From an uncultured Dehalococcoidia bacterium (GTDB taxonomy: Bacteria > Chloroflexota > Dehalococcoidia > Lucifugimonadales > UBA3495), in contig CAZPMU010000004.1 in the NCBI GenBank assembly GCA_964587795.1, forward strand, positions 15,142-79,141: a DNA stretch of 64,000 nucleotides. Reading direction: 5' to 3'. The position numbers and the translations under genes are program-made. Each line of letters begins with the position of its first letter. The stretch's first letter is position 1. Shown here piece by piece: positions 14,618 through 34,946 of the stretch. Below the pieces are notes generated by a model that was not told where the DNA came from, made no database searches, and saw only the letters and a list, made by a program, of their open reading frames with translations.

Positions 14618-14728
14618 ACCAGGAAGGCAGGGCTCTTACGGGCTAAACCGGAGGTTCGTTTGATTAACCCCGGTGGTTGGGCTAAAATCCGATTCATTCC
14701 AATTTACGATCTGGAGGCTTGAACGAGA

Positions 14729-15922: not shown

Positions 15923-16006
15923 GCGGAGGACGGGACGAGTCTCTATCCGCATAACGCTGGGCCGGCTCAGCAGCCCTGAAAAAACAAGCAAGAGGTAACC
16001 ACCACA

Positions 16007-17362: not shown

Positions 17363-17450
17363 ATTCGCTCCAGTCCCAGGACTGGGCGGCAAAGGGCCCC
17401 GGCCCCATCCTTGACACGGTAACCAGCCCTCTTTAAGCTGGATGAATGGA

Positions 17451-17522
17451 GGGCCTGTAGCTCAGTGGAAGAGCAACCGGCTCATAACCGGTAGGTCGCT
17501 GGTTCGAACCCAGCCGGGCCCA
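17451..17522 (+). tRNA. tRNA-Met (anticodon CAT, elongator type; lysidine-modified Ile2 not excluded); CCA not encoded
   Basis: Hand-folded cloverleaf: acceptor GGGCCTG/CGGGCCC, D stem GCTC/GAGC, anticodon stem ACCGG/CCGGT with loop CTCATAA, T arm GCTGG-TTCGAAC-CCAGC. Confidence 0.85.
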
Positions 17523-17532
17523 CTTTTGTCAT

Positions 17533-18076
17533 CCCCTCCCCTTGGGTTCCTCCCGCTTATCCTCTGTACGAGAGCTTGCGCTCCACTTAGATACCCCTGA
17601 CCTTTGGTTTATCTGGACCAACTGGTGGTCCACAGAGAACCGGCGCGTTAGCCAGCATCAGCAAACCGCCCCGAAGTTGTTCCCTTGGAACAAGCCTTCG
17701 GCCCGCTGGGTCTGGCGGATATAGCAGATGATTCTCTCCACGTCCTTCTCCTCCACACTGGGTACGGGCGCCACGTCTCCAAAGGGCCAGTGGAGCCTGG
17801 AACGCCCTGGGCAACGGCGTTGCGGATGCTGAAGTCGGAGTGGTGGCCGGGGTGATAAGCGCGATGGATCAAGGGCGGGCCAATGCTGGTGCCGACGGCC
17901 TCCAACCCGTGGCAGGCACAACAGTTGGTGTTGAGCAGGTCTTCTCCCTGTCGGGCCGTTACAGCTACATCCAGGACTCCCACAGGTTGTTGTTGTTCCA
18001 CGGCCACCGCTAATGGAGCCCTCACCGGGGCGACAGATTTACGTCCGCAGTCGGAAACGAACACCAAGGCAACCAT
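17533..18076. repeat. Direct repeat R1 (about 540 bp, roughly 85% identical to R2 at 29401..29941)
   Basis: Manual alignment to 29401..29941. Both copies contain the hairpin TGGACCA-N5-TGGTCCA and the cytochrome c coding sequence. Similarity ends at ggcaaccat. Confidence 0.85.
17658..18076 (-). pseudogene. Cytochrome c remnant (5'-truncated, 1-nt frameshift)
   Basis: The N-part (MVALVFVSDCG...NCCACHG...AQGVPG) and C-part (HWPFGDVAPVPSVEEKDVERIICYIRQTQRAEGLF) are in different frames. Relative to the intact copy, one G is missing near 17797-17801. The signal peptide N-region is missing. Confidence 0.75.
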
Positions 18077-18373: not shown

Positions 18374-21300
18374 ATGATGGAAAGTGACACCAACCTGGAA
18401 GCATCCGGCCCGACTCCCGAAAGACTGCCCTCTAAAGTGGCCGGTGGGTGTCGGAATATGAGAGGGCCCGGGGAACCGATCGCCGTAGTGGGAATGGCAT
18501 GTAAGTTCCCCGGCGCGCCGGATATTGCGGCCCTGTGGCGGCTTTTGGCGGCGGGAGGGAACGCCGTCATCGAAGGCGAACCCGGTTCAGGAGTTGGGCG
18601 TATTGGCCAGTTCTATCCCAAGTCCGCTGCCCAGTACACAGCTTGCAGGTTTGCCGCACTGGTAGATGACATTGACCTTTTCGATGCAGAGTTCTTCCGC
18701 ATTTCCCCGGTGGAGGCCCAGTTGCTGGACCCCCAGCAGAGGATGACCCTTGAGATCTGCTGGCAGGCCCTTGAGGATGCGGGTATAGACCCGGAGAGTC
18801 TGCGGAACACCCGCAGCGGCGTATATATCGGCGTCACCAACAACGACTATCGGGGGATGAACCTTGCCTCCGCCAGCCAGATAAGTGAGCCCGCCGCCAG
18901 CCTCTATGCCGTCAGCGGCACATCCTTCAACACCGTTGCCGGCCGGGTGGCGTACGTGCTTGGCCTGGAAGGTCCCACCATTGCCCTGGATACCGCCTGC
19001 TCCTCTTCGCTGGTTGCCGTGCACCAGGCCGTTTCGGCTCTGCGGGAGGGCGAGGCGGATCTGATGCTTGTAGGGGGGACCCAGGCTATTTTCAACGGCC
19101 GCCTGACCCAACTGCGGGCCCAGGCGGGCATGCTTTCCCCGCAGGGCCAGTGCAAGGCCTTCGACTCCTCGGCCAACGGCTTCGTCCGGGGCGAGGGCTG
19201 CGGCATCGTCGTGCTGAAACGGTTGAGCGACGCCGAAGCGGACGGCGACCCCATCTGGGGCGTTATCCTTGGCTCCGCCATCAACCAGGACGGCGCCAGC
19301 GCCGGGCTTACCGTACCGAGCGCTCCGGCCCAAGTAAAGGTTATCCAGGACGCCCTGCTCCAGGCTGGGGTTGCGCCGGCGGAAGTGGATTACCTGGAGG
19401 CCCACGGCACGGGAACAGAGGTGGGCGACCCTATTGAGCTGAGCTCCGCCGCCGAGGCCTACGGCAACGGACGAAAACCGGACCGACCCCTGCTGGTGGG
19501 TTCGATCAAGACCAACATGGGCCACCTGGAGCCGACGGCGGGTATAGCCGGATTTATGAAGGCGGTACTGTCGCTGCGCCAGCGCGTAATACCCAAGCAC
19601 CTGCACTTTGACAACCCAAACCCGAGGGTGGACTGGGCGAACTTGCCGGTGGTGATTACCGGCGAAAAGACCGATTGGCCTTCCACCGGCAATCGACCGC
19701 CCAGGGCCGGTGTCAGTTCCTATGGCTGGTCTGGCACCAACGCTCACGTCATTGTCGAGGGCTACGGTCAACCCGACAATCCGTTATCGGGAAGCGACGA
19801 AGTTTCGTTGCCTACCGGCAGCGTGGTAACCATTGGCTGGAGCGTTAATGAGGACGAAGAGCCCCCATCTGAGAGCGAGAGGACTTTCGAAGGGCGGCCG
19901 GCCCGCTTTTTGCCCGTCTCGGGCAAGTCGGCCGACGCCCTGCGGGACACGGCCAATGCCTACTTGACCTGGCTCGACGAGCATGAGGCTGACGCGGAGC
20001 TTGCCGACCTGGTCTGGTCAGCCAGCGTTGCTCGAAGCCATTTCGACTTTAGGGACGGCGTTGTATTTCGCGACGGCGTCACTCTTCGAAAGGGGCTGGA
20101 AGCAATGGCGGGGAACTTGGACCCTGCTTTCCTCCCCAGGGCAGCCCGAGTTGCCTTTGTCTATACCGGCCAGGGAAACCAGTGGGTGGGCATGGGCGAG
20201 GCGCTTTACCGGCAGGAACCCGTTTTTCGAGAAATAATGGACCGCTGCGACAGTTTCATTCGACAAGAGCGGGGAGTATCGCTGCTTGACGTGATGTTCG
20301 GACGTACAGGCGCTACCGGCGACCTGGACGAGCCCCGGTGGACGCAGCCTTCCATTTATGCCCTGGAGTGCGCCCTGACAGCGTTGTGGCGCAGTTTGGG
20401 CATTGAGCCCGTCGCGGTGCTGGGCCACAGCCTGGGGGAGATTGCCGCGGCCCAAGCCGCCGGCGTGTTCACCCTGGAAGATGGAATGAAGTTTGCCTCT
20501 GCCCGCGGCCGACTGATGGGAGACCTGCCCGGAGCCGGGGCCATGGCTGCCGTCTTTGCTCCGGTGGCCCGGGTGACCGAGGCGGTAGAAAACTGGAAGA
20601 AGGAACACCCCGGATCTGACCTTTGCATCGGCGTGGACAACGGCGCGCACCAGGTTATCAGCGGGCCGCAGGAAGAGGTGCATGCCCTGGCCGACCGGCT
20701 GGAGTACGAGGGCGTCAACCTGAGACGGTTACGGCCCAGTCCTGCCTACCACAGCCCGTTAGTGGAACCGGCGCTGGACGACTTGCAGGCCGTACTCGAA
20801 GACATGGGAGTCTCCACTCCTTCCGTTACGCTGGTCAGCAACGTGACGGGTAAGCCGGTAGGAACCGACTTTGCGATGGACGGCGCTTACTGGCGCCGGC
20901 ACGCCCGCCAACCGGTGCAATTCCGGCAATGCGTGGAGACTTTGGCCACCGACCTGGGTGTTGATGCAGTCATTGAACTGGGCCCCCACGCCATCCTCGG
21001 TCCCCTGGTGTCTTTGAATTGGCCCACCGGCGCCGGTGTTGCCGATACCCCGCTGATACTGCAGAGTCTGCTGCGGCCCTCTTTCGACGGCTCAGAGCCC
21101 GAAAGGGCGGACGCCTTCGTCGGTGCCGTGGCCGGAGCGTACCGGGCGGCTCTGCCCGTGGACTTCAGGGGCCTGTTCGCCGGGGAAGTCCGGCGGCGGA
21201 TTAAAATTCCCGGCTACCCATTCCAGCGGCGGCGTTTCTGGACTCCGACTCCGCAGCGTCGGGCCTCGGAAGACTCGCACCCCTTGCTGGGCGTGAAGCA

Positions 21301-24300
21301 CGAGTCACCCCGGGGCGAGGTGATGTTCGAGACCGAGATGCTTCCCTCCGACCCAGTCTGGCTGGCCGACCACCGGGTTTACGGCCGGGTGGTAATGCCC
21401 GGCGCCCTGTTCGGCGCCATGGCCGCCGCAGCATCGGAGATTGATGGGTCCGGTGGTCTGGTAATTGAGGAGTTTCAACTACTTAACCCCTTGGTGTACC
21501 CCGAGTACGATGAGACGGACGACTCGCGAGAACCGGGGAAACGGGTCCAGTTGATCGTTGACGACGCCAGTGGTAATCAGATACGCCATTTTGAAATTTT
21601 CAGCAAAGGCGAAGGGGAAGAAGACTGGGTCCAGCATGCCGAGGGTCAGTTTTCCCGACGCGACACGCGGGCTGCATCCATTGAATGGGTTGACATCGAT
21701 GCCTTGAAGGATGGACTTTCCCCCCAGGACCTGCCTTCCTATTACCGCAGCAAGGCGGCCGCGGGCATAGACCTGGGCCCGGCCTTCCGCACCCTGGAAG
21801 CCCTGTGGGGCGGAGATGGCGAGGCCGTGGCTGAATTGGCGCTGCAGTTCCGCGGCGACGGGAACGATTCCGCCCTCCATCCCCTCTTGTTGGACGGGTG
21901 TCTCCAGGTCTTCTCCGCAGCCCGTTACCAGACCGTTGTGGGGGGCGACGCTACCTACCTTCCCTTCGCCTGGGAACGGCTCTGGCTAAACGGCCCCCTG
22001 CCTGGCAACTTTGTCTGCCACGCCCGCCTGCGGGATTCCGTGAACGACCAGGACGCTGAAGGGCAAATTTCACAGATTCCGGAAACCCTGAAAGGTGACC
22101 TTTGTTTTTACTCTCCTGACGGCCTGGCGCTAGGCGGCTTGACCGGCTTCGCCGTGAAGCGATCCTCCCGTTCCTCCCTGCTGTCTGCCACGGAAGAACT
22201 GGAGGACCTGCTCTACGAGGTGGTCTGGCGTGAGAGGCCGTTGCTCGACCGGTTGCAGCCCGCCGACGCTCTGGCATCGCCGTCCACGGTGGCGGCATCC
22301 ACCGGCACTTTCGGTGAATACCTGGCCCGCGAGGGAGTGAACCTGGAGGAGAGGTCTGCCCTGCTGGACGACCTGAAGCTTTTGTCCCGCGCTTATGCGT
22401 ATGCATCCCTGGACCAGCTGGGTTGGGAACGACGATCGGGTACGGTAGTCGACCCGGAGTTGTTGCAGGAACATCTGGGCATACTCCCCGAGCATACAGT
22501 CCTTTTCGACAGAATGCTGCGTCTGCTGGTTGACGCCGGAGTGCTGGAGCGGGATGGCGGAAGATACAGGGTCAGAATCGGGACTGGAGAACCCTTGCCC
22601 GACGAAGATTTGGCCTACCCTGATGACCTTAACGACCGACTGACTGCCCTCCACCCCCATGGCGCCGTCGAACTGGGTCTGCTGCGGAGAAGCGGAGGAG
22701 CGCTGGCCCAGGTGCTGCAAGGAGACGTGAACCCCCTCTCCATTCTGTTCCCCAGAGAGGGGCCAGGGATAGCCGATTATTACTTCACCGCTCCGGCATC
22801 CCGCGCAACGAACCAGTTGTTGGGAGAAGCCGTAGCGGCTGCCGTGGCCAACTGGCCGGAAGAGCGTCCTCTGCGGATTCTGGAGGTGGGCGCGGGAACC
22901 GGCTCCGGCACTTCGGTGGTTTTGCCCCAACTGCGGCCTGGGAATTTCACGTATATGTTCACCGACATTTCGGCGGGGTTCTTTGCCGAGGCCGAGAACA
23001 GATTCGCCGATTCGGGCGCCCCGCTGGAATACCGCTCCCTGGACATAGAGCGGAATCCTGGCGACCAGGGCTTCGACCTGCATGCTTATGACCTGGTCAT
23101 TGCCGTGAACGTGTTGCATGCCACCCGCGACCTGGGCGAGACGCTGACCAATTGCCGAGAGTTGCTGGCGCCTTCCGGGAAGCTGATAGCGGTGGAAAAC
23201 CTGCGAGGCCGCGGCTGGCAGGACATGGTATTTGGGCAACTGGACGGCTGGTGGAGGTTCTCTGACCAGTATCGTCCCGACCACGCACTCGCCTCACCTG
23301 AAGTATGGCGGCGGGCCCTGGCCGATGCCGGATACGTGGAATCCGCCGTCTTGGGCGGAGAACCGGGGACTGATGAGCGGCCCCTGGGTTCGGGCGTCGT
23401 ACTGGCCGAAGGGCCCCGTGAAGTTGGGTGGGAGGCCGGGGTCTGGGTAGTGGCCGGCGGCGAGCGCGCATTCTCGCAAGATCTGGCGTCAGCCCTGGCG
23501 CAGCAAAACCAGACCGTGGTTCTGGCTTCTCCCTTGTCGGAAATTGCAAATTCCGAAGCGTCGAAGGGCATTCGGCGTGAAACGGTGGAACCGGACGACA
23601 GGAACTCCTGGCTCTGCTTGCTGAACCAGTTGCCGACGGCGCTGCCCTTGAGGGGCGTGGTGCATTGCTTCGCCACTGAAGGGCACGGGCTTCAAGCCTC
23701 CACCGAAGAAATGGCGGATGACGTGCGCCGGATCGGACAGTCCGCTTTGACTCTTGCCCAGGCTCTGCAGGATGCGGATATCTCGCTGGATAGGGGACTA
23801 TGGTTCGTAACGCGCGGGGCGCAGGCTCTGGAGCGGGACTACATGCGCGAGTGGGCTGGGCAACTGGCAGGGTCCTCCTTGTGGGGTTTCGGCAAGGTTG
23901 TGGCGCGGGAAGCGGCACATCTCCGCCCGCGAATGCTGGATTTGGACCCAGCAGGGCCGGACAATTTGGAAAGTCTCGTCAACGAAATGATGTTTCCCGA
24001 CCCGGAAACCCAGGTGGCGTTCCGGGACGGAAGGCGTCTGGCGGCGCGCCTGGTCAGGGCAGGGTCGGGTCGAGCACGGATAGATTTGCCGGACGACTCG
24101 GGCTGGCGCCTGATGCCCGGCGCCGGAGGAGGCCTGGAAAGCCTGCACGCCGAACCCGCTCCCAGCCGTCCCCTGGAACCGGGGCAGGTCCGGGTGGCAG
24201 TGGAAGCAGTGGGCGTGAACTTCCTTGACGTGCTCCTCAGCATGGGAGTCGTGACGTCCGCCGAACCGCTGCTGGGCGAGGAATTTTGCGGACGAATTAC

Positions 24301-27300
24301 GGAAACTGCGCCGGATGTGACGAAGGTAGCAGTGGGCGATAGAGTGGTGGGGCTGGGCTTCGGCACCTTTGGACCCGAGATTGTAACTACGGCGGAACTG
24401 GTCGCGCCCGCACCCGAAGGAATGCATGCGGCGGCGCTAACAACCATACCATCAGCCTTCGTCAGCGCCGGGCTGAGCTTCGAGATGGCCGGGTTAAAGG
24501 CTGGCGACCGGGTACTTATCCACACCGCATCGGGCGGCGTGGGACTGGCGGCCGTGCAGTTGGCACAAAGCGTGGGAGCCGAAGTTTTCGCCACCGCTAG
24601 CCAGCCCAAGCAAGCCTACCTCCGGGCCCTGGGCGTAGAGCATGTTTTCGACAGCCGGACAATCGACTTTGGCCAGCAGGTCCGGGAAGCAATAGGCGGC
24701 GCCGGCATAAACATGGTATTGAACAGCCTAACGGGCCCCGGGTTCATCGAGGCCAGCCTTTCCTGCCTGGCGGACGGCGGCAGTTTTGTTGAGATGGGAC
24801 GCCGGGACATCTGGAGCAGCGAAGAAATGGCAGCATCGCGGCCCGATGTCGCCTATTCCATTCTCGAGTTGGACTACCTGAAGAAGAACGAACCGTCCCG
24901 TCCGGGCCGAATGCTCCGCTCCGTCATGGAAGGAATTTCGGGGGGCACTCTGGAGCCGCTGGCCCACACCCGCTGGCCCATCGCCGAGGCCGGGGCCGCC
25001 ATGGAGTTCATGCGGTCGGCCCGTCACATAGGCAAGAATGTCATGGTAATGCCGCGGATGGCTGGTGGTCAGTTACGCCACGACCGCTCCTACCTGGTAA
25101 CCGGCGGTCTCGGCGGCATAGGCACGGTGGTTGCCCGCTGGCTGGCCGAGCGAGGCGCCGGGGTAATTGTCTTGAACGGACGTCGGCCCCCGGACCCGGA
25201 AGCGCAGGAAGTGATTGATTCCCTTCGGGCGCAGGGGACAGATGTCCGGGTGGAACTGGCCGACATGACCGACTTGGCGGCCATAGATAGCATGCTTGCC
25301 AGGATCGACGCCAACATGCCGCCCCTGGCCGGAGTCATTCACAGCGTGGGGGTGCTGTCCGACGGCTCCCTGGGAAACCAGACCTGGGAGCGTTTCGAGC
25401 GGGTCCTGTGGCCCAAGGTACTGGGAGCGTGGCATCTGCACCGGGCCACGTTAGACCGCGACCTGGACTTGTTTGTCCTGTTCTCCAGCATTACCGGCGT
25501 GGTGGGCAATTCGGGACAGGGCAACCACGCGGCGGCCAATACTTTCCTGGACCAGTTGGCCGCTTACCGCCGCTCCCTGGGCCTGCCGGGCCAGAGCATC
25601 GCCTGGGGAGCCTGGTCCGGGCTGGGCGAGGCCGAAGAACAGCGGCAGCGAATCGAACGTCAGCTCGAGGCGGCGGGCACCGGATGGCTCAGCCCGCAAC
25701 AGGGGCTGAAGGCCCTCGAGGAACTGGTACACCAGGACATGACCTTCGGGATGGTGGCGTCGGTGGACTGGCCGACCCTGGCGGAAAACTTTGAGGAGCC
25801 TCCCACTTTCCTGGTCGAGTTGCTGCCCGGCGAGGAAAATGGCGACCAAACCCTTGCCGGCGACACGGCAGACTTCTTGTCCCAGCTAAAGTCCGCGCCG
25901 CAGGAAGCCTGGGAGCAGGTACTGGTTCCCTTCCTGCAAAGAGAATTGCAGGCAGTGCTTCGGATGCCGACGGCCCCAGCGCCCAATGTGGGCTTTTTCG
26001 AATTGGGTATGGACTCTTTGATGTCGGTGGAACTCCGCAACCGGCTGAACCGTACCCTGGCGGGCGAGTACACGGTCTCCAACACCGCCGTGTTCGACTA
26101 TCCCAACATCTCTGCCCTGGCCGGTCACCTGGGCGCTGAACTCGGGCCGGTCCTGGGGTCTGCCAACGTCGTGGCGGACATTCCGAGTCTGCGTAGGCCG
26201 GTAACCCACGTCTCTACCGATGAAGATGCCATAGCCATAGTGGGGATGGCTTGCCGATTCCCCGGTGCGTCGAACCTGGAGTCTTTCTGGGACCTGCTTG
26301 AAAGAGGAAAAGACGCCATTACTGACGGCCGCCCCGCCGGGGGACCCTGGGAGGGTGTGGCCGGCGACCCGGCAGCACAGGAAGACATTTTCCGGCGGGG
26401 TGGGTTCATTGAAGACCTGGACCGGTTCGACAACCGATTTTTCCGCGTTTCTCCTATAGAGGCGCGGCTGATGGACCCCCAGCAGCGGCTGCTACTGGAA
26501 ACAACCTGGCACGCGCTGGAAGACGCCGGACTTGACCCCGAAAGGCTCAGGGGAAGCCGCACTGGCGTCTATGCCGGCATTGGCACCAGCGAGTACCGGG
26601 AAGTAATCTCCGCGAGCGGGCAGGAGGACCTGTATTTCGGGACCAGCGCCAGCCTGACCGCGGGAAAAATTGCCTTTGTGCTGGGGCTTGAAGGACCGGC
26701 CATGCCGGTGGACATGGCCTGCGCCTCCTCCCTGGCGGCGGTTCACCAGGCGGTTGCCGCCCTACGAGGGGGAGAGGTGGATTTGGCTCTGACCGGAGCG
26801 GTCAACACCACCCTGTCGTTGCCCATTGCCCGCTTCCACCGCGAAATGGGATTGCTGTCCGCCTCGGGGCGCTGCAATGCCTTCGACGCCACTGCCGACG
26901 GGTTCGTTCGCAGCGAGGGCTGCGGGGTGCTGGTCCTGAAGCGGCTGAGCCAGGCGGAAGCCGACGGCGACCGAATCTGGGGCCTGGTGAAGGGCACGGC
27001 AATCAATCAAAGCGGGACCAGCGCAGCCATGCCGGTGCCCAACGGGCCAGCCCAGGAGCGAGCAATGGAAGAAGCCCTCGCCAAGGCCGGTGTGGCTCCC
27101 GCTGAAGTGGACTACGTAGAGGCCCACGGCACCGGTACTGAACTGGGTGACTCCATTGAACTTCGGGCCCTGGCTTCGGTTTACGGCAAGGGGAGAGAAG
27201 CGGAACGTCCCCTGCTGCTGGGTTCGGTCAAGACCAACATCGGTCATACCGAGTGGTCATCGGGAATGGCCAGCATCATCAAGGCCGTAATGGCAATGCA

Positions 27301-28744
27301 AAAGGGTGTGATCCCCGCACACCTGCACTTCAACGCACCCAACCCCAACTTCGATTGGCGACAATTGCCGGTCCAGATTACTTCGGAGCAGATTGCCTGG
27401 CCTTTGGCAGCCGAACGGCCTCCCCGTTCGGCGGTTAACTCATTCGGCATGTCTGGGACAAATGCGCATATAGTAATGGAGGGATACCGGCATCCCGGTG
27501 ATGGCCCCGCTTCCGACCGCGACACGTCGTGGCCGTCGGGCGGGCCGCAGGCTATGCAGATTGCCTTGCACCAAAATAGTGACGACGTGCAGCAATTGGA
27601 CGAGACTCAGCAGGCTCGGACCGCCAGGGTTTTGCCCCTGTCCGGCAAGTCTCCCGAGGCGCTGCGATATCTGGCAGAGGCATACCTGTCCTGGCTGACC
27701 AAGGAAGACGTTCAATACGCGCTGGAAAACGACGCAGGGAACTTCCTTGCCGATATGGCGTGGACGGCAGGTTCGGGGCGCAGCCATTTCTCGTGTCGAG
27801 CGGGCGTAGTATTCACCGATGCCGCTGACCTGCAGGCCTCGCTGGAAAATGTGGCGCAGTCGGCTATGGCATCTGGTGAACGGGCATTTGGAACTACACC
27901 AGGAATCGCCGTTGTGTACGCCTCCTCGGGCGGCCTTTGGGAAGGGGTGGGAGAGGAACTTTACCGTACCGAGCCGGTTTTCCGGGCTGTCCTGGAACGT
28001 TGCGACGAGTGGGTAAGGGCAGAGAGGGGGCAGTCCCTGCTGGAGGTCATGTTCGGCAAGGCGAGAACTTCGGAGAGTCTGTCGCATCCGACGTGGGCAA
28101 ATGCCGCAGGCTACGCGCTGGAAACCGCACTTACTAGCCTGTGGGAGAGCGCGGGCATCCGCCCGATGGCGGTCCTGGGCCAAGGAATTGGAGAGGTCGC
28201 TGCGGCCCATACCGCCGGTATCGTAAGCCTGGAAGACGGGTTGCGGCTGGCAATGGCATTGTCTGGTCCGGAAGCGGCGCTCCCTATAGTGGAGACCAGG
28301 TCTCCCTCGCTAACCATGGTCAGCAGCGTCATGGGTCGCGCCGTGCAGCCCTCGGACACTCTGGACAACGGTTACTGGCGGCGCTTGACGGGAGACCAGC
28401 CGGACCTTCAGACCTGCCTGCAAACACTGGCGGCGAGCTCAGTCAACGTGCTGCTGACACTGGGATCGAGAGGTAGGAAGACTGCGCCGTCGGTAAGTGC
28501 ATTCAACGAATGCGCGGCCACGGATGCGAACCTGTCAATCATATACGGGTTGCTCCGTCCCGAAGGGGATTCTAAAGGAGATGCCAAAGGATTCCTGGAG
28601 GCGGTTGCAGCGGCCTACGAGTCGGGTTCTACGGTCGCCTTCCAGGGGATCTTTGCAGGGGAAGAGAGGCGCCGCATTTCGATTCCCAATTATCCTTTTC
28701 AACGCCGGTCGTTCTGGGTGCGGCGACGGAATTGCCGGGCGTGA
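18374..28744 (+). CDS. Type I polyketide synthase, 3456 aa: KS-AT-DH-cMT-ER-KR-ACP-KS-vestigial AT
   Basis: Single uninterrupted ORF with AGGAAAG upstream of the ATG. Domain motifs are listed in the sub-features. Confidence 0.95.
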   Translation: MMESDTNLEASGPTPERLPSKVAGGCRNMRGPGEPIAVVGMACKFPGAPDIAALWRLLAAGGNAVIEGEPGSGVGRIGQFYPKSAAQYTACRFAALVDDIDLFDAEFFRISPVEAQLLDPQQRMTLEICWQALEDAGIDPESLRNTRSGVYIGVTNNDYRGMNLASASQISEPAASLYAVSGTSFNTVAGRVAYVLGLEGPTIALDTACSSSLVAVHQAVSALREGEADLMLVGGTQAIFNGRLTQLRAQAGMLSPQGQCKAFDSSANGFVRGEGCGIVVLKRLSDAEADGDPIWGVILGSAINQDGASAGLTVPSAPAQVKVIQDALLQAGVAPAEVDYLEAHGTGTEVGDPIELSSAAEAYGNGRKPDRPLLVGSIKTNMGHLEPTAGIAGFMKAVLSLRQRVIPKHLHFDNPNPRVDWANLPVVITGEKTDWPSTGNRPPRAGVSSYGWSGTNAHVIVEGYGQPDNPLSGSDEVSLPTGSVVTIGWSVNEDEEPPSESERTFEGRPARFLPVSGKSADALRDTANAYLTWLDEHEADAELADLVWSASVARSHFDFRDGVVFRDGVTLRKGLEAMAGNLDPAFLPRAARVAFVYTGQGNQWVGMGEALYRQEPVFREIMDRCDSFIRQERGVSLLDVMFGRTGATGDLDEPRWTQPSIYALECALTALWRSLGIEPVAVLGHSLGEIAAAQAAGVFTLEDGMKFASARGRLMGDLPGAGAMAAVFAPVARVTEAVENWKKEHPGSDLCIGVDNGAHQVISGPQEEVHALADRLEYEGVNLRRLRPSPAYHSPLVEPALDDLQAVLEDMGVSTPSVTLVSNVTGKPVGTDFAMDGAYWRRHARQPVQFRQCVETLATDLGVDAVIELGPHAILGPLVSLNWPTGAGVADTPLILQSLLRPSFDGSEPERADAFVGAVAGAYRAALPVDFRGLFAGEVRRRIKIPGYPFQRRRFWTPTPQRRASEDSHPLLGVKHESPRGEVMFETEMLPSDPVWLADHRVYGRVVMPGALFGAMAAAASEIDGSGGLVIEEFQLLNPLVYPEYDETDDSREPGKRVQLIVDDASGNQIRHFEIFSKGEGEEDWVQHAEGQFSRRDTRAASIEWVDIDALKDGLSPQDLPSYYRSKAAAGIDLGPAFRTLEALWGGDGEAVAELALQFRGDGNDSALHPLLLDGCLQVFSAARYQTVVGGDATYLPFAWERLWLNGPLPGNFVCHARLRDSVNDQDAEGQISQIPETLKGDLCFYSPDGLALGGLTGFAVKRSSRSSLLSATEELEDLLYEVVWRERPLLDRLQPADALASPSTVAASTGTFGEYLAREGVNLEERSALLDDLKLLSRAYAYASLDQLGWERRSGTVVDPELLQEHLGILPEHTVLFDRMLRLLVDAGVLERDGGRYRVRIGTGEPLPDEDLAYPDDLNDRLTALHPHGAVELGLLRRSGGALAQVLQGDVNPLSILFPREGPGIADYYFTAPASRATNQLLGEAVAAAVANWPEERPLRILEVGAGTGSGTSVVLPQLRPGNFTYMFTDISAGFFAEAENRFADSGAPLEYRSLDIERNPGDQGFDLHAYDLVIAVNVLHATRDLGETLTNCRELLAPSGKLIAVENLRGRGWQDMVFGQLDGWWRFSDQYRPDHALASPEVWRRALADAGYVESAVLGGEPGTDERPLGSGVVLAEGPREVGWEAGVWVVAGGERAFSQDLASALAQQNQTVVLASPLSEIANSEASKGIRRETVEPDDRNSWLCLLNQLPTALPLRGVVHCFATEGHGLQASTEEMADDVRRIGQSALTLAQALQDADISLDRGLWFVTRGAQALERDYMREWAGQLAGSSLWGFGKVVAREAAHLRPRMLDLDPAGPDNLESLVNEMMFPDPETQVAFRDGRRLAARLVRAGSGRARIDLPDDSGWRLMPGAGGGLESLHAEPAPSRPLEPGQVRVAVEAVGVNFLDVLLSMGVVTSAEPLLGEEFCGRITETAPDVTKVAVGDRVVGLGFGTFGPEIVTTAELVAPAPEGMHAAALTTIPSAFVSAGLSFEMAGLKAGDRVLIHTASGGVGLAAVQLAQSVGAEVFATASQPKQAYLRALGVEHVFDSRTIDFGQQVREAIGGAGINMVLNSLTGPGFIEASLSCLADGGSFVEMGRRDIWSSEEMAASRPDVAYSILELDYLKKNEPSRPGRMLRSVMEGISGGTLEPLAHTRWPIAEAGAAMEFMRSARHIGKNVMVMPRMAGGQLRHDRSYLVTGGLGGIGTVVARWLAERGAGVIVLNGRRPPDPEAQEVIDSLRAQGTDVRVELADMTDLAAIDSMLARIDANMPPLAGVIHSVGVLSDGSLGNQTWERFERVLWPKVLGAWHLHRATLDRDLDLFVLFSSITGVVGNSGQGNHAAANTFLDQLAAYRRSLGLPGQSIAWGAWSGLGEAEEQRQRIERQLEAAGTGWLSPQQGLKALEELVHQDMTFGMVASVDWPTLAENFEEPPTFLVELLPGEENGDQTLAGDTADFLSQLKSAPQEAWEQVLVPFLQRELQAVLRMPTAPAPNVGFFELGMDSLMSVELRNRLNRTLAGEYTVSNTAVFDYPNISALAGHLGAELGPVLGSANVVADIPSLRRPVTHVSTDEDAIAIVGMACRFPGASNLESFWDLLERGKDAITDGRPAGGPWEGVAGDPAAQEDIFRRGGFIEDLDRFDNRFFRVSPIEARLMDPQQRLLLETTWHALEDAGLDPERLRGSRTGVYAGIGTSEYREVISASGQEDLYFGTSASLTAGKIAFVLGLEGPAMPVDMACASSLAAVHQAVAALRGGEVDLALTGAVNTTLSLPIARFHREMGLLSASGRCNAFDATADGFVRSEGCGVLVLKRLSQAEADGDRIWGLVKGTAINQSGTSAAMPVPNGPAQERAMEEALAKAGVAPAEVDYVEAHGTGTELGDSIELRALASVYGKGREAERPLLLGSVKTNIGHTEWSSGMASIIKAVMAMQKGVIPAHLHFNAPNPNFDWRQLPVQITSEQIAWPLAAERPPRSAVNSFGMSGTNAHIVMEGYRHPGDGPASDRDTSWPSGGPQAMQIALHQNSDDVQQLDETQQARTARVLPLSGKSPEALRYLAEAYLSWLTKEDVQYALENDAGNFLADMAWTAGSGRSHFSCRAGVVFTDAADLQASLENVAQSAMASGERAFGTTPGIAVVYASSGGLWEGVGEELYRTEPVFRAVLERCDEWVRAERGQSLLEVMFGKARTSESLSHPTWANAAGYALETALTSLWESAGIRPMAVLGQGIGEVAAAHTAGIVSLEDGLRLAMALSGPEAALPIVETRSPSLTMVSSVMGRAVQPSDTLDNGYWRRLTGDQPDLQTCLQTLAASSVNVLLTLGSRGRKTAPSVSAFNECAATDANLSIIYGLLRPEGDSKGDAKGFLEAVAAAYESGSTVAFQGIFAGEERRRISIPNYPFQRRSFWVRRRNCRA
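18473..19765 (+). other. PKS domain KS1 (approximate bounds)
   Basis: VGMACKFPG, DTACSSSLVAVHQA (Cys209), EAHGTGTEVGDPIE, NMGHLEPTAG. Confidence 0.9.
20147..21010 (+). other. PKS domain AT1 (approximate bounds)
   Basis: FVYTGQGNQWVGMG and GHSLGE (Ser686). PAYHS occupies the HAFH/YASH position. The post-AT linker PGYPFQRRRFW ends near 21243. Confidence 0.85.
21277..22165 (+). other. PKS domain DH (approximate bounds)
   Basis: HPLLG start. HxxxGxxxxP appears as HRVYGRVVMP (His1000). DxxxQ appears as LLDGCLQ. Confidence 0.8.
22660..23355 (+). other. PKS domain C-methyltransferase (approximate bounds)
   Basis: SAM motif I ILEVGAGTGSGT (about aa 1500). Downstream VIAVNVLHAT and LLAPSGKL motifs. 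Confidence 0.8.
24098..25055 (+). other. PKS domain ER (approximate bounds)
   Basis: VRVAVEAVGVNFLDV and the NADPH motif LIHTASGGVGLAAVQLAQ. Confidence 0.8.
25085..25640 (+). other. PKS domain KR (catalytic Tyr replaced by His)
   Basis: YLVTGGLGGIG, WPKVLGAWHLH (Lys), FSSITGV (Ser). GQGNHAAAN stands where GQxNYAAAN is expected; the His2385 codon cac is at 25526..25528. Confidence 0.8.
25921..26131 (+). other. PKS domain ACP
   Basis: FELGMDSLMSVELRNRL. Phosphopantetheine Ser2548 codon is at 26015..26017. Confidence 0.85.
26224..27488 (+). other. PKS domain KS2 (approximate bounds)
   Basis: VGMACRFPG, DMACASSLAAVHQA (Cys2783), EAHGTGTELGDSIE, NIGHTEWSSG. The Cys-His-His triad is intact. Confidence 0.9.
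27900..28744 (+). other. PKS vestigial AT-like region (AT0) plus post-AT linker; the ORF ends here
   Basis: GQGIG replaces GHSxG (Gly3271 at the Ser position). About 90 aa, including the HAFH/YASH region, are missing relative to AT1. The ORF ends ...PNYPFQRRSFWVRRRNCRA. Confidence 0.75.
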
Positions 28745-29400: not shown

Positions 29401-29941
29401 GCCCTTCCTTTGGGCTTCTCCCGCTACTCCCCGGTGCGCGAGCCGGAGCTTTTTTGACAAACCCGTACCTTTGGTCCATCTGGACCCACTGGTGGTCCAC
29501 AGAGAGCCGGCGCATTAACCGGCATCAGCAAACTGTCCCGAAGTCGTCCCCTTCGAACAAGCCTTCGGCGCGCTGGGTCTGGCGGATATAGCAGATGATT
29601 TTCTCCACCTCCTGCTCCTCCACGCTGGGTACGGGCGCCATGTCTCCAAAGGGCCAGTGGTGCTGGGGAACGCCCTGGGCTACGGCGCTGCGGAAGCTGA
29701 AGTCGGGGTGGTGCCCGGGGTGATAAACGCGATGTATCAAGGGCGGGCCAAGGCTGGTGCCAACGGCGCCGGCGCCATGGCACGCGGAACAGTTGTCGTT
29801 GAACAGGTCTTCGCCCTGTCGAGCCGTTTCAGCTACATCCAGGACTGCCGCGGGTGGTTGTTCCACGCCCGCCGCTGAGGGAGCCCTCACCGGGGCGGCA
29901 GATTCGCTTCCGCAGCCGGCAAAGAACAACAGGGCAACCAT
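29401..29941. repeat. Direct repeat R2 (partner of R1)
   Basis: Aligns with 17533..18076. Carries the 3' flank and most of the intact cytochrome c gene. Confidence 0.85.
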
Positions 29942-30022
29942 CAGGACCAAGCCCAAGGCCAAAAGCGTAACCGCCGATACCGGACTCCCCCCTTTCAGGC
30001 CATCCTCCAGCGCGTCCCTCAT
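29525..30022 (-). CDS. Class I c-type cytochrome, lipoprotein
   Basis: ATG at 30022 overlaps the BVMO stop (ATGA). Lipobox LFFAGC, heme motif CSACHG, distal Met in FGDMAPVP. The 226-aa ORF-track version overlaps the BVMO gene and was rejected. Confidence 0.8.
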   Translation of the reverse strand: MRDALEDGLKGGSPVSAVTLLALGLVLMVALLFFAGCGSESAAPVRAPSAAGVEQPPAAVLDVAETARQGEDLFNDNCSACHGAGAVGTSLGPPLIHRVYHPGHHPDFSFRSAVAQGVPQHHWPFGDMAPVPSVEEQEVEKIICYIRQTQRAEGLFEGDDFGTVC

Positions 30023-31668
30023 TCCAGCAGGAAACCCTCGTAGCCGTTGGCGGCGACATCGGCGCGCTTGGCCCGCATTACAGGGGCCGTGTCGGGGCTG
30101 GTGAGCAGGGCGCGGGCCTTGCCGGGGATGTTGGCCCCCACGTACCAGGAGTTGGCCTGGGAGCGGAGAATCCTGGAGCCTTCCTCGTTGACGTGGTTGA
30201 CCCATTCGTCCTCGGCCTCAAGGGTTGGCGAGATGCGGACGAATTCGTTCTCACGGACGTAACGGATACACTCGGTTACCCATTCAACCAGGGGTTCGGC
30301 GGCCCGAACAAAGTTTCCCACGGAAGCAGAGTTAATGGTGAACAGATTGGGGAAACCGTTGCTCTGGATACCAAGATAAGTGCGGGGGCCGTTGGCATGC
30401 TTTTCAGTCAACAGTTGTCCGCCGATTCCCCGGACGTTGATGCGGTTCAGGGAGCCGGTTACGGCGTCGTAGCCTGTGGCGAAGATGATTACGTCCAGGT
30501 CGTAATGCCCGCCTGCGGTTTGAAGGCCGGTGGGGGTGATACGCTGGATGGGCGCTTTTCGCACGTCCACCAGCAGAACATTGTCCCGGTTGTAAACTTC
30601 GTAGTAGCCACTCTCGCAGGGAAGGCGCTTTGAGCCGAACATGTGGTCCCTGGGCACCAGCATTTCGGCCACTTCGGGGTCGTGGACACGCTCCCTGATC
30701 TTGTTGCGGACGAATTCGGCGTAGTCCTCATTGGCCTCTCCCGGAAGCATCACGTCGTAGAAATTTGACAGCCACTTGGCAAATCCCGGCTCCTGCCAGA
30801 GACGCTCGTACTGTTCCTGGCGTTCTTCGTCCGAAACGTCCATGGCGGAACGGGGGTCAAAGAGGTGCATGAAAGACCCGGCAGTCTCGTTGCAGCGGCG
30901 GAAAATTTCGGGATAATTGTCCCTGATTTCCTGCATCATCTCGTCGGTAATGGGACGGTTGCGCAGGGGAGCGCAGAAGTTGGGCGTGCGCTGAAAGACG
31001 GTAAGATGGCCTACCTCTTTGGCTATCTCGGTAATCAGCTGGACCGCAGTGGCGCCGGTTCCAATGACACCCACTCGCTTGCCGGCCAGGTCCATACCTT
31101 CCTTCGGCCAGCGCCCGGTGTGGCACCACCGGCCCTGGTAAGTTTCCAGGCCCTCGAAGTCGGGGATGTAGTGGGCGGACAAGAGACCTACGGCAGTGAC
31201 CAGGAAAGGAGCGCGGGCCTGGTGGCCGTCGGCAATGGTAACCAGCCAGGAATTGCAGTCTTCCTCAAAGGTGCAGTCCACAACCCGGGAGTTGAAACGG
31301 ATGTGGCGCTTCAGGTCGAATTTGTCCGCCACGTAATTCAGATATCGTTCATTCTCGGGCTGGCCGGAGTAAAGCTCCTTCCAGTCCCACTCCTGCAGCA
31401 GTTCCTGGGAAAAGGAGTAGCCGTAGGTGTAGCTTTCGGAGTCGAAGCGGGCGCCAGGGTAGCGGTTCCAGTACCAGGTGCCCCCCACACCGTCGCCATC
31501 TTCAAACACACGTACGGACAGTCCGATATTGCGGAGGCAATAGGTCTGGTAAAGACCCGTAACGCCGGCGCCGATGACTATGGCGTCGAACTGCTCTACG
31601 TCGTCACCCAAACCGTAACTGCCGATGGCGGTCTGTTCTTTAGCTTCTACCATCTTTTTCTCTCTCAA
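30019..31668 (-). CDS. Baeyer-Villiger (type I flavin) monooxygenase
   Basis: FAD motif VIGAGVTGL, BVMO fingerprint YQGRWCHTGRWP (FxGxxxHxxxWP), NADPH motif VIGTGATAVQ. Confidence 0.9.
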   Translation of the reverse strand: MREKKMVEAKEQTAIGSYGLGDDVEQFDAIVIGAGVTGLYQTYCLRNIGLSVRVFEDGDGVGGTWYWNRYPGARFDSESYTYGYSFSQELLQEWDWKELYSGQPENERYLNYVADKFDLKRHIRFNSRVVDCTFEEDCNSWLVTIADGHQARAPFLVTAVGLLSAHYIPDFEGLETYQGRWCHTGRWPKEGMDLAGKRVGVIGTGATAVQLITEIAKEVGHLTVFQRTPNFCAPLRNRPITDEMMQEIRDNYPEIFRRCNETAGSFMHLFDPRSAMDVSDEERQEQYERLWQEPGFAKWLSNFYDVMLPGEANEDYAEFVRNKIRERVHDPEVAEMLVPRDHMFGSKRLPCESGYYEVYNRDNVLLVDVRKAPIQRITPTGLQTAGGHYDLDVIIFATGYDAVTGSLNRINVRGIGGQLLTEKHANGPRTYLGIQSNGFPNLFTINSASVGNFVRAAEPLVEWVTECIRYVRENEFVRISPTLEAEDEWVNHVNEEGSRILRSQANSWYVGANIPGKARALLTSPDTAPVMRAKRADVAANGYEGFLLE

Positions 31669-31916
31669 GTGAAGTTAGGGGCAATATACCAAAAATCCGG
31701 TCCTAAAGCAGTTAAAGACGATTTTCACCACAGACCGCAGAGGACGCAGAGTTGCCCGGCGTTGCCACGTAGCCGGTATGTCGATATGAAGGGACAGCCT
31801 GTTCCCGCTGATCGAGAGCAGTTACCCCTGGAAATACTGGGAGACCTGGACATTGTTATTCGTTATAATGCTTCAATGAGGGCGTTCTCATCCGGGTAGT
31901 CTTGCCATGGAATGAT

Positions 31917-31939
31917 GGCAGACACACAAGTCTGCCCCT
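31917..31939 (+). repeat. GC-rich palindromic intergenic element, family B
   Basis: ggcagacacacaagtctgcccct, with stem GGCAGAC/GTCTGCC. Confidence 0.55.
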
Positions 31940-32037
31940 ACCACTCTCGCGCTCAAACTACTTCAACCTAAACGCTACCTGCTTCAATTTCGGGCTTTTA
32001 CACCCCTCCTTCCCAAAGGCCCCCCAGGAGTCAGCTG

Positions 32038-33777
32038 TTGTCTCAGACTAACATTAACGAACACGTCCGCTACGAGCCAGACGACAAACCGCCGCCGCTT
32101 ATCGCAGCCGGCGCCGGGGCACAGGCCGCCATTCTGATCATCACTCCCGTGGTGTTGACGGTGGTAATCGTGATGCGCATCGCGGACCAGTCCGAAGGGC
32201 TCATTGTGTGGGGCGCTTTCGCCGCCCTGCTGGTGAGTGGTTTGACCACCATTTTGCAGGCCGCGAAGTGGGGACGCATTGGTTCGGGACACGTACTGCT
32301 GATGGGGACTTCCGGTGCCTTCATCGCCATCTGCGTTGCCGCGTTGACTACCGGCGGACCGGCCACCATGGCCAGTTTAATAGTCGTGTCATCCCTGTTC
32401 CAGTTCCTGATGGCGGCGCGCCTTTCCCTGCTGAGGCGAATATTCACTCCAGTAGTCACGGGGACTGTGATTATGTTAATCGCGGCCACCGTGTTTCCCT
32501 TCGTGTTTGGCTCTCTCACCGATGTGCCGGAAGGCACTCACGCCGCAGCGGCGCCGCTGGCAGCGGGAATTACGCTGGCGGTGGTAGCGGGACTGGTGTT
32601 GCGGGGGCCGCCCCGGCTGCGGCTGTGGGCGCCGATTGTGGGCATAGCGCTGGGCTGCGTGGTTTCTGCGCCCTTCGGCATATATGATGTGGAGCCCATA
32701 ATCGAAGCGCCGTGGATTGGTGTACCCTTCAGTTCCTGGCCGGGCCTGGACTTAACGCCGGATAAGCACTTCTGGGGGCTGTTGCCGGCATTCATCATAG
32801 TTACGTTGGTTGGGGCCATTGAGACCATCGGGGACGGTGTGGCCATCCAGCGGGTGTCGCGGCGAACGCCTCGGGCCACGGACTTCCGGGTGGTTCAGGG
32901 AGCGCTGAACACCGACGGAGTGGGCAACCTGCTTTCGGGCCTGACCGCGACCCTGCCCAACACTACCTACTCCACCAGCATATCGCTGGCCGAAGTTACC
33001 GGCATCGGGGCCCGCCGGGTGGGCATTGTCATCGGCGTCATCCTGACCGCGGTGGCCTTCTTCCCGAAGATTGCCGCGGTGGTCATCGCCATTCCCACGC
33101 CCATCGCCGCCGCCTACATCACCGTGCTGCTGGGGCTGCTGTTCATCCAGGGGATGAAGATTGTGATCCAGGACGGGGTGGACCACCGGAAGGCAACAGT
33201 GGCGGGCGTGGCTTTTTGGGTGGGAACCGGATTTCAGAACCAGTGGATTTTCCCGGAACTGCTGGGCGACGGGTTCCTTTCCGTCCTGCTGGGCAACGGG
33301 ATGACCTCGGGCGCGATAGCGGCGGTAATTATGATGGTCTTCCTGGAACTGACCGCTCCACGCCGTAGAAAGTTGGATATGGCGATGGACGACGAAGCAC
33401 TGCCCAGGCTGACGGAATTCCTGACCCAGTTCGCGGGTCGCATTGGCTGGGACCGTCCCGCAACCGACCGGCTGGTGCTGGTGGGAGAAGAGACGTTTAA
33501 CAGCCTGGCGTCGGAGGAAACGGAGGAGGGCAATGGCAGACCGCGGCGACTGATGGTGAAAGCGCGGGCCGCCGGTTCCGGGGTGGAGCTGGAGTTCGTT
33601 TCGGCCGTGGAAGGCGAAAATCTGGAGGACGAACTTTCTTACCTGGGCGAGACTCCAGACATAGCCGACGACCGGGAAATATCGTTCCGGCTGCTGCGGC
33701 ACTACGCGTCGTCGGTGCGCCACCAGAAGTACCACGGGGTGGACGTGGTGTCGGTGGAAGTGGCGCGGTCGGGGTAG
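32038..33777 (+). CDS. NCS2 (xanthine/uracil/vitamin C) family permease with C-terminal soluble extension
   Basis: TTG start 8 nt after CAGGAG. Multi-TM core contains the GAIETIGD and NTTYSTSISLAEVTG motif regions. About 130 non-hydrophobic C-terminal residues. Confidence 0.75.
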   Translation: MSQTNINEHVRYEPDDKPPPLIAAGAGAQAAILIITPVVLTVVIVMRIADQSEGLIVWGAFAALLVSGLTTILQAAKWGRIGSGHVLLMGTSGAFIAICVAALTTGGPATMASLIVVSSLFQFLMAARLSLLRRIFTPVVTGTVIMLIAATVFPFVFGSLTDVPEGTHAAAAPLAAGITLAVVAGLVLRGPPRLRLWAPIVGIALGCVVSAPFGIYDVEPIIEAPWIGVPFSSWPGLDLTPDKHFWGLLPAFIIVTLVGAIETIGDGVAIQRVSRRTPRATDFRVVQGALNTDGVGNLLSGLTATLPNTTYSTSISLAEVTGIGARRVGIVIGVILTAVAFFPKIAAVVIAIPTPIAAAYITVLLGLLFIQGMKIVIQDGVDHRKATVAGVAFWVGTGFQNQWIFPELLGDGFLSVLLGNGMTSGAIAAVIMMVFLELTAPRRRKLDMAMDDEALPRLTEFLTQFAGRIGWDRPATDRLVLVGEETFNSLASEETEEGNGRPRRLMVKARAAGSGVELEFVSAVEGENLEDELSYLGETPDIADDREISFRLLRHYASSVRHQKYHGVDVVSVEVARSG

Positions 33778-34034: not shown

Positions 34035-34946
34035 CTAATCGCCTCCCAGGCGGTGGCCGTCGAGGTACCTGCGAGCCGATGCCAGGACCAGGTCGGGGTC
34101 TTCCATGGCCACGAAGTGGGAGCCCCTGGGAAGGGTTTCCATGCGCGCGCCCTTGACCTCGTTCAGGAAATACTTGACCTCATCGCTGCTGCGGGCGGCC
34201 TCGTCCGGGTAGTTGCCGGTGTTGCCCAGGAGGAGCAGGTAATCGCCGGACAGTTCCTCCAGGTAGGGCGTGGGATTCAGGGCGTGGCGGGCCTCGTAGT
34301 AGAAGGCCTCCACGTCGGTGGGGCACTTCAGTTCTGCCCGCCCGTCGTCCAGCAACCGGGTGCCGCCGTAGATATAGTCCCTGACCGCGTCATCGGTCCA
34401 GGTGCTGAACACCCGCCGGTTGCGGTAGGCATCGTACATTATCTTCCTGGACTCCCAGATGGCCCGCTTGTTGCGTGTGCGGTTCATCCGCTCCTCCCGT
34501 TCCTCCGGGGCATAGACTTCCAGGGCGGGGCCTACCCGGGTGTCCACGAGTACGGTGGGTCCGACGGTCCCGGGGGCCTTGGAATTGGCGATCATGATGG
34601 TCATACCGCCGGCGGAGTGGCCGATGCCGTATGGGGGCCGGGGTGGATTGAGGGCCTGCACCAGGCCAATGACGTCCTCGGCCATGTTGTCGAAGGTGTA
34701 GCCGCCCGGTTTGTCGGTGTCGCCGTGGCCGCGCAGGTCAAGGGAAAAAACGTAATAGTCCCGGGCCAGGTCTTCGGCCAGGGGACGCCATACCATGGCG
34801 CACAGGCCGATACCGTGGGTCATTATCAGGAGCGGGTTTTCCGGGCTGCCCCAGGTCAAGCCGTGAAGGGTAATGCCGTTGGCCTGGACGTACTTGCTGG
34901 TTGGTTCCAAGGTTTCCTCCGTTTTCATTAATCCACTAATGGGCAC
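34035..34946 (-). CDS. Alpha/beta hydrolase
   Basis: HGIGLCAMVW, LRGHGDTDKP, nucleophile elbow GHSAGG. Start uncertain (alternative ATG 34928). Confidence 0.8.
   Translation of the reverse strand: MPISGLMKTEETLEPTSKYVQANGITLHGLTWGSPENPLLIMTHGIGLCAMVWRPLAEDLARDYYVFSLDLRGHGDTDKPGGYTFDNMAEDVIGLVQALNPPRPPYGIGHSAGGMTIMIANSKAPGTVGPTVLVDTRVGPALEVYAPEEREERMNRTRNKRAIWESRKIMYDAYRNRRVFSTWTDDAVRDYIYGGTRLLDDGRAELKCPTDVEAFYYEARHALNPTPYLEELSGDYLLLLGNTGNYPDEAARSSDEVKYFLNEVKGARMETLPRGSHFVAMEDPDLVLASARRYLDGHRLGGD

Follow-up and report, generated by a model that had tools for sequence, protein, structure and literature searches.

The 64,000-nucleotide stretch of DNA analysed here (the window, from contig CAZPMU010000004.1 of assembly GCA_964587795.1, an uncultured Dehalococcoidia bacterium) carries one large gene for a type I polyketide synthase (PKS), at positions 18374–28744 of the forward strand. 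We think, with good though not complete confidence, that this is an intact supA-type gene, supA being the core of the sup cluster and the reference SupA protein having been compared by description only, and that its host is most likely a Chloroflexota/Dehalococcoidia-like symbiont. The sup cluster (“sponge symbiont ubiquitous PKS”) is unusually small and monomodular (PMC4245539, PMC3908369), and dominates ketosynthase (KS) amplicons and PKS surveys of high-microbial-abundance sponges (PMC4245539). The window gene is a new and rearranged member of this known Sup family, and a SupA protein that ends in a second KS is the normal design of the family rather than a new architecture.

Architecture and conservation of the probable supA-type gene

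The open reading frame (ORF) encodes nine domains, called by Pfam in the order KS1-AT1-DH-cMT-ER-KR-ACP-KS2-AT°: a KS, an acyltransferase (AT), a dehydratase (DH), a C-methyltransferase (cMT), an enoylreductase (ER), a ketoreductase (KR) and an acyl carrier protein (ACP), followed by a second KS and a vestigial AT (AT°). Up to the ACP, this is the arrangement of a fully reducing module in which a cMT is embedded. A preliminary description, made from the letters of the DNA alone, had proposed such a module followed by a second KS-AT in an ORF of 3456 amino acids (aa), and Pfam domain calling upheld it. An exact-sequence look-up with the full 3456-aa ORF returned no matching record. The gene and its parts are as follows.

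18374..28744, + strand: supA-type PKS gene, intact ORF of 3456 aa with an ATG start (ORF list, Pfam, NCBIfam)
18473..19756, + strand: KS1, aa 34–461, Cys209/His344/His384 (Pfam PF00109/PF02801; residues conserved in the family)
20156..21043, + strand: AT1, aa 595–890, GHSLGE, Ser686/Arg711/His793 (PF00698, 2.9e-59, Pfam match aa 595–875)
21278..22171, + strand: DH, aa 969–1266, His1000 and Asp1174 (PF21089, PF14765)
22850..23335, + strand: C-methyltransferase, aa ~1493–1654, S-adenosylmethionine (SAM) motif EVGAGTGSG (PF08242, PF13649, PF08241)
24179..25042, + strand: ER, aa 1936–2223 (PF08240, PF00107, PF13602)
25088..25618, + strand: KR, aa 2239–2415, His2385 at the catalytic Tyr position (PF08659, 1.6e-63)
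25934..26131, + strand: integrated ACP, aa 2521–2586, GMDSL (PF00550)
26225..27481, + strand: KS2, about aa 2618–3036, Cys2783/His2918/His2958 (Pfam; 53% identical to KS1)
27482..27913, + strand: KS-AT linker, aa 3037–3180 (PF16197, PF22621, PF22336)
27914..28573, + strand: vestigial AT°, aa 3181–3400, GQGIGE, with Gly3271 replacing Ser (partial Pfam match)
28574..28744, + strand: post-AT linker FAGEERRRISIPNYPFQRRSFW, 7-aa basic tail and stop codon (translation)

In the translated KS2, the motifs DMACASS, EAHGTGT and KTNIGH keep the Cys-His-His triad whole. AT° carries GQGIGE at the GHSxG site, matches the AT profile at positions 3–117 of 319 only (aa 3181–3297; Pfam), and in alignment with AT1 has a deletion of ~95 aa that covers the small subdomain and the catalytic His. 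The motifs, the AT1 alignment and the partial profile match bear out what had been claimed of this end of the protein, namely that the second KS is intact and its AT vestigial. The terminal post-AT linker is of the same type as the one preceding the DH in module 1, and the protein stops 7 residues past the linker motif YPFQRRSFW.

This ending is shared by the relatives. With the C-terminal 856 aa as the query of a homologue search, 105 of the 120 best matches, all of which were inspected, stop at most 13 residues away from where the window protein does, past YPFQRRxxW, and six matches that continue into a DH are N-terminal KS1-AT1-DH fragments of the same family. In addition, a scan of GTDB with one genome per species, using an alignment of the AT° region (A1), gave at least 530 tblastn-confirmed loci in species-representative genomes that encode the C-terminal region. 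The best 80 of these (at least 530) loci were retrieved, and 83 related loci were examined in total. Every complete locus among the 83 has the nine domains in the same collinear order, loci truncated by contig ends show the part that they hold, and the domain spacing agrees across loci within tens of bases. In most loci the stop codon lies 6–28 residues after the linker motif. Orthologues that continue past the second AT had been named beforehand as a sign of truncation; no further PKS domains follow AT° in the loci examined, a few of which could not be scored.

The hosts belong to about 12 phylum-level lineages and are mostly metagenome-assembled genomes (MAGs) from sponges. They include Dehalococcoidia, other Chloroflexota, Latescibacterota, Alpha- and Gammaproteobacteria, Acidobacteriota, Nitrospirota, Nitrospinota, Gemmatimonadota, Rhodothermales, Desulfobacterota-like lineages, Binatia, and Acidimicrobiia, and the named sources are sponge-derived (“Candidatus Porisulfidus sp. 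TsSOB lac_sponge”, the SB06xx bins, and Caldilineaceae SB0666). The nearest PKS relatives of the window gene are locus L001 (83.5% nucleotide identity over 10 kb) and L006, in a Dehalococcoidia MAG (81%).

One reading offered by the preliminary description was that of a recently truncated bimodular cis-AT synthase, which would have lost its 3′ DH, KR, ACP and thioesterase (TE). The protein does end at the KS-AT/post-AT linker boundary, where modules normally go on, ~780 bp of non-coding DNA follow the supA stop codon, and the gene is located at a synteny breakpoint (see below). However, the endpoint shared by 105 of the 120 best matches recurs wherever a locus among the 83 is complete, in about a dozen phyla, the second AT is dead family-wide, and six-frame and gap scans of the window found no PKS remnant downstream. 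Because the endpoint is shared across the relatives, it is neither a recent truncation nor a one-off, and we regard loss of a 3′ half as extremely improbable.

Catalytic positions were mapped over the loci, with the loci holding a given domain as denominators. The catalytic and cofactor positions of module 1 and KS2 are each kept in at least 97% of these loci, which applies to the triads of KS1 and KS2, the Ser, Arg and His of AT1 (Ser686, Arg711 and His793), the DH His and Asp, the MT glycines, the ACP Ser, the cofactor motifs of ER and KR, and the Lys, Ser and Asn of KR. For example, the KS2 triad is kept in 83 of 83 loci at Cys2783, 82 of 83 at His2918 and 83 of 83 at His2958, the DH has His1000 in 72/73 and Asp1174 in 74/74, the glycines of the cMT SAM motif are present in 75/75, and the GGVG of the ER in 78/78. 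At the Ser position of the second AT, by comparison, alignment A1 shows Gly in 66, Asp in 10 and Ser in 3 of the 83 loci.

Estimates of dN/dS against three good-quality Dehalococcoidia genomes, which are rough values as dS is near saturation, were 0.09–0.13 for KS2 and 0.08–0.15 for KS1, compared with 0.22–0.29 for the AT° core and 0.25–0.37 for the KS-AT linker. Comparison with relatives shows purifying selection in all domains of the window supA. On this evidence KS2 appears to be a working condensing enzyme, and AT° a retained dead scaffold. A KS2 dN/dS of ~0.1 and a triad kept in 82–83 of 83 loci also lend support to an earlier suggestion about the chemistry, in which a methyl-branched reduced chain would be passed to KS2 for condensation. 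The KS1 and KS2 sequences fall into two separate clades that branch internally in a similar way, which argues that the fusion is old and that the gene evolves as one unit. Among seven KS-AT-DH outgroup candidates, six are N-terminal fragments of the same family, and only P0061 is a true outgroup.

The AT° tail diverges far more quickly than the remainder of supA, which would be in keeping with relaxed constraint, or with recombination, at the 3′ end. Identity to L001 and L006 is mosaic, with KS1, MT and ACP at ~96% versus 58–64% for the AT° tail (27900–28744).

Partner genes and the sup cluster

In two close relatives, L001 and L003, the PKS stop codon is followed by a 78–81-aa ACP, an Sfp-type phosphopantetheinyl transferase (PPTase) and an Abhydrolase_6 protein, and a ~590-aa Xan_ur_permease lies after the hydrolase in L003 and upstream of the PKS in L001. 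Profiles were built from the partner genes of these two loci and then searched in all loci, and counts were taken over the 65 loci with 10 kb of flank on both sides, a gene being scored when it lay within 10 kb of the PKS. A discrete ACP of ~80 aa was found in 57 of the 65 loci, the hydrolase in 48/65, the permease in 39/65 and the PPTase in 35/65. All four partners accompany the PKS in 27/65, the permease is the only one in 1/65, and no partner was found in 6/65. The usual order past the PKS stop codon is ACP-PPTase-hydrolase. The SupA of 2007 presumably has a C-terminal KS-AT, with supB for the ACP, supC for the PPTase and supD for the hydrolase, and we assign the labels supB–D to the partner genes here in that sense; the literature confirms SupE as the permease only.

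As side observations on these loci, the SupD-type hydrolases (L001–L083) have no canonical GxSxG and mostly carry FHS[VI]SAL at the expected nucleophile elbow, and in L003 the insertion of a DDE transposase (8676–9878) splits supA between the MT and ER regions.

The PKS of the published sup cluster is small, and its one complete reducing module has a cMT (Fieseler et al. 2007, Hochmuth et al. 2010, via PMC3908369, PMC4245539), and Pfam finds such a module in the window gene. SupE (ABE03914) is the permease of clone pAPKS18 (PMC3908369) and would belong to the Xan_ur_permease family; a permease of this type is present with the window gene as well (32038–33777). SUP clusters have been reported in MAGs of Chloroflexota, Spirochaetota, Proteobacteria and Acidobacteriota, independent of taxonomy (PMC9426513), in agreement with the ~12 phylum-level lineages, several of them explicitly from sponges, in which we find the relatives. 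We identify the gene with sup because the five-gene layout, the distribution over sponge MAGs and many phyla, and the SupE permease all match the published cluster. Compared with that cluster, the window copy is without adjoining supB–D and is flanked by duplicated cytochrome c genes; since supB–D are absent from the window, the link to sup rests on the relatives.

The same match to the published cluster (PMC3908369, PMC4245539, PMC9426513) corrects the preliminary description, in which the architecture was not recognised as that of a described family. In favour of a previously undescribed PKS architecture, NCBIfam labels the ORF only with the generic name “type I polyketide synthase”, and the literature found holds no account that spells out the KS-AT° tail of SupA or states its domain order, the original descriptions (Fieseler 2007, Siegl 2011) being outside that search. 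Given how well the five genes, the multi-phylum spread over sponge MAGs and the SupE permease fit the sup cluster, we consider novelty of the architecture very unlikely.

Several points nevertheless weigh against the sup identity and the chemistry that goes with it. The absence of supB, supC and supD from the 64-kb window leaves the proposed partner of KS2 unsupported at this locus. No match named “Sup” was returned by the homologue, permease or cluster look-ups, and the identity is proposed from published descriptions of the cluster. We know of no biochemical demonstration of the Sup product or mechanism. Finally, the KR has a His in place of its catalytic Tyr (discussed below), and if it were inactive, a fully reduced product would be wrong.

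SwfA, the sponge widespread FAS-like PKS (PMC3908369), is likewise a monomodular reducing enzyme of sponge symbionts. Near swf lie a SupE-like permease and a B12 radical SAM gene (SwfC), and both types of gene are found near the window PKS too. SwfA differs in being KS-AT-DH-ER-KR-ACP, with neither a cMT nor a second KS, and has the motifs DPQ[IV]R and HATGT (PMC3908369), whereas both KS of the window PKS have DPQQR and HGTGT.

For genome scanning, a PKS that ends in a carrier-less KS-AT should be compared with SupA first. Handles on the family are an architecture of nine domains that does not vary among about a dozen phyla, a KS2 constrained to the same degree as KS1 beside an AT that is a dead scaffold, and a dedicated small ACP past the stop codon that is the likely partner of KS2.

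Proposed chemistry and the ketoreductase

We infer the chemistry, the pairing of KS2 with SupB, the loader of SupB and the product from domain content, active-site conservation and synteny. SupA would be a fixed one-and-a-half-module enzyme. As a loading domain is absent, KS1 is proposed to take an acyl primer, and module 1 to carry out one malonate extension with AT1 as the malonate supplier. GHSLGE is read as a malonyl-type AT motif, from which AT1 is predicted to be active and malonyl-type. The cMT would then methylate the β-keto intermediate with SAM, and full reduction by KR, DH and ER would give a 2-methylacyl chain on the integrated ACP. KS2, a decarboxylating enzyme held on the dead AT scaffold, is proposed to condense this chain with malonyl-SupB. 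A malonyl carrier would be required by KS2 because both decarboxylation His are present, and the discrete ACP after the stop codon is the only conserved candidate for that carrier. SupB would be primed by the PPTase SupC and, because AT° is dead, loaded in trans by AT1 or FabD. The condensation would leave a 3-oxo-4-methylacyl chain on a free-standing carrier, where elongation without methylation and release by the hydrolase SupD may place the methyl group at mid-chain; 10-methylhexadecanoate, for example, would result from a C6 primer after one round with methylation and four without. Such a product would agree with the mid-chain methyl-branched fatty acids proposed for sup (PMC4245539, PMC3908369). 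SupE is left in this scheme as an associated permease without an assigned cargo.

The step most exposed to doubt is ketoreduction. The catalytic Tyr position of the KR is His2385 (nt 25526–25528), in the motif GQGNHAAAN, which aligns residue by residue with GQGAYAAAN of mycocerosic acid synthase (MAS) and GQPGYAAAN of AmphB, the His standing opposite the Tyr. This His is found in 78 of 79 loci, with the Lys, Ser, Asn and NADPH motif retained. We know of no precedent for a KR with His replacing the catalytic Tyr. The domain may be a competent non-Tyr short-chain dehydrogenase/reductase (SDR), or it may be inactive; as the DH and ER are intact, we think it probably functional. An inactive KR would mean that Sup does not make the reduced branched fatty acid that has been assumed since 2007, and the family-wide change from Tyr to His is a testable oddity able to alter the predicted product.

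A variant of the scheme dispenses with SupB. About 10% of loci are without a dedicated ACP nearby, like the window supA, and KS2-AT° may there be a built-in adaptor that hands the intermediate of a type I PKS to the type II fatty acid synthase. We assign a low probability to the combined alternative that either an orphan supA works with housekeeping malonyl-AcpP, or the KR His marks a competent non-Tyr SDR or an inactive domain.

Another alternative is an iterative synthase similar to fatty acid synthase (FAS) or the fungal highly reducing PKSs (HR-PKSs), in which module 1 makes the entire chain, methylating it in a programmed manner, without a dedicated second carrier, and KS2 only off-loads or gates, via the integrated ACP or housekeeping AcpP. 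Iteration by a single full reducing loop is established for MAS and fungal HR-PKSs, so the loop of module 1 would be able to iterate, and both the window and 8 of the 65 loci have no ACP within 10 kb. On the other hand, a dedicated ACP comes right after the stop codon in 57/65 loci, often with its own PPTase, KS2 retains both His for decarboxylative condensation, and KS1-AT1 is closest to non-iterative modular cis-AT PKSs. KS1-AT1 scored 691 bits against CurL, 557 against DEBS, 505 against MAS, 385 against LovB and 308 against animal FAS, with the same ranking for KS2. We therefore find an iterative module 1 doubtful, although it is not negligible next to the preferred scheme with SupB.

The KS-AT of CurL (PDB 4mz0) is the best solved KS-AT didomain for both KS-AT pairs, with 691 bits for KS1-AT1 and 517 for KS2-AT°; the putative PKS 7zma scores higher with KS2-AT° (583 bits), but over two KS-only stretches. 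The window PKS and the cis-AT modules of cyanobacteria and myxobacteria also have their KS-AT linker families in common. By these similarities both KS-AT pairs appear to belong with bacterial cis-AT modular PKSs and not with FAS or fungal HR-PKSs, so that the framing of the module as FAS/HR-PKS-like in the preliminary description was misleading. The window PKS differs from cis-AT assembly lines in having no loading or release domain, and in a second module made of a KS and a dead AT with the carrier on a separate protein.

MAS is likewise a single fully reducing module for methyl-branched fatty acyl chains, and its KR is the best PDB match of the window KR (166.6 bits), but it has the normal Tyr where the window KR has His. 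In MAS the branch comes from methylmalonyl-CoA; the enzyme works iteratively and lacks both a cMT and a second KS. An identity as a MAS-like PKS was rejected on the presence of a cMT and KS2 and the malonyl-type GHSLGE of AT1. Pks13, the mycolic acid condensase, which gave a partial NCBIfam match, would resemble the window PKS in having a type I KS that joins an acyl chain made beforehand to a carboxyacyl carrier. The domains of Pks13 are ACP-KS-AT-ACP-TE, and its AT is active. A Pks13-type enzyme was rejected too, as the score for NF040607 was 1266 against a cutoff of 2100 and the window protein has no TE and no flanking ACPs.

The window locus and its rearrangement

The genes next to the window supA are listed here.

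17648..18076, − strand: cytochrome c, upstream of supA (Pfam)
29525..30205, − strand: cytochrome c, downstream of supA (Pfam)
30019..31668, − strand: flavin monooxygenase, downstream of supA (Pfam)
32038..33777, + strand: supE-like permease, 579 aa, Xan_ur_permease (Pfam, 1.7e-42)
34035..34946, − strand: alpha/beta hydrolase (sub-threshold Thioesterase match)

Cytochrome c and a monooxygenase on the opposite strand had been given as the nearest neighbours, as we also find. The permease is the only usual sup partner gene within the 64 kb, and matches the hidden Markov model of PKS-linked permeases with E = 2e-259. SupE-like permeases are 70–91% identical over ~579 aa (120 best 90%-identity clusters), which makes this family more conserved than the accompanying PKS, and their C-terminal ~180 aa fall outside the Pfam permease domain.

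Outside the supA ORF, Pfam scanning of the window’s 58 predicted ORFs detected no domain of the PP-binding, ACPS, AMP-binding, condensation or ketosynthase type; the sole Thioesterase match is the sub-threshold one to the alpha/beta hydrolase. A six-frame scan of the window with a broad ACP model found only the integrated ACP (25916–26140), models of the family ACP and PPTase gave zero matches in the same six frames, and neither the 780-bp gap after the supA stop codon nor any of the six window frames holds relics of an ACP or PPTase. These scans agree with the earlier statement that the window has no second ACP, PPTase, loading ligase, condensation domain or further PKS. The ACP, PPTase and hydrolase partners must therefore be encoded elsewhere in the genome, or be missing.

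Candidates among the neighbours were rejected. The hydrolase at 34035–34946 is not a SupD, as it scores 40 bits against the clean SupD profile and is 22–28% identical. Nor do the monooxygenase, the cytochrome c genes and the B12 radical SAM gene count as members of the cluster: none of the 83 sup loci has a homologue of any of them, and a relative devoid of a PKS keeps these genes together with the permease.

That relative is L084, a TARA metagenome scaffold, whose permease is 91% identical to the window permease and which has no PKS within 10 kb. Positions 29522–42839 of the window are syntenic with L084 7617–21620 at 83–88% nucleotide identity, and the shared block comprises the monooxygenase, the permease, the hydrolase, the B12 radical SAM gene, two amidohydrolases, an aldolase-SDR fusion, and NHL-repeat proteins. 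On the other side of supA, positions 11770–17523 (a PfkB kinase, DUF192, an HpcH aldolase and two family III CoA-transferases) are ~80% identical in nucleotides to 7794–13186 of L065, in the Chloroflexota sponge MAG RHO2_bin_36, where the block lies inverted and downstream of that locus’s own supA. The two cytochrome c genes that bracket the window supA are paralogous (67% aa identity), lie in the same orientation on the strand opposite to the PKS, and both have as their nearest relative the lone cytochrome c that neighbours the monooxygenase in L084, which suggests an insertion or rearrangement at this site. The synteny with L084 and L065 and the cytochrome c pair together indicate that the window supA stands at a rearrangement point, detached from supB–D.

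Such a position raises the question of whether the copy is an orphan, moved or left without supB–D, and non-functional but undegraded. The lack of an ACP, PPTase and SupD-type hydrolase in 64 kb, the duplicated cytochrome c genes that bracket supA, and a close relative (L084) that shares the right flank without a PKS would all fit this account. Yet the gene shows no sign of decay: the 10.4-kb ORF has no interruption, the catalytic residues are all in place and all domains are under purifying selection. In addition, the six complete-flank loci without any partner nearby show that supA stands apart from its partners in other genomes too. We thus consider a non-functional orphan unlikely, and favour an intact supA-type gene at a rearranged site.

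As minor observations on the window, the convergent permease and hydrolase and the B12-binding radical SAM gene (32038–36312) are kept together in L084 and L085 without a PKS. The C-terminal fragment of a DnaB-like helicase lies at the window edge (29–823), and an IstB-like AAA ATPase at 1562–2962 may be related to a mobile element.

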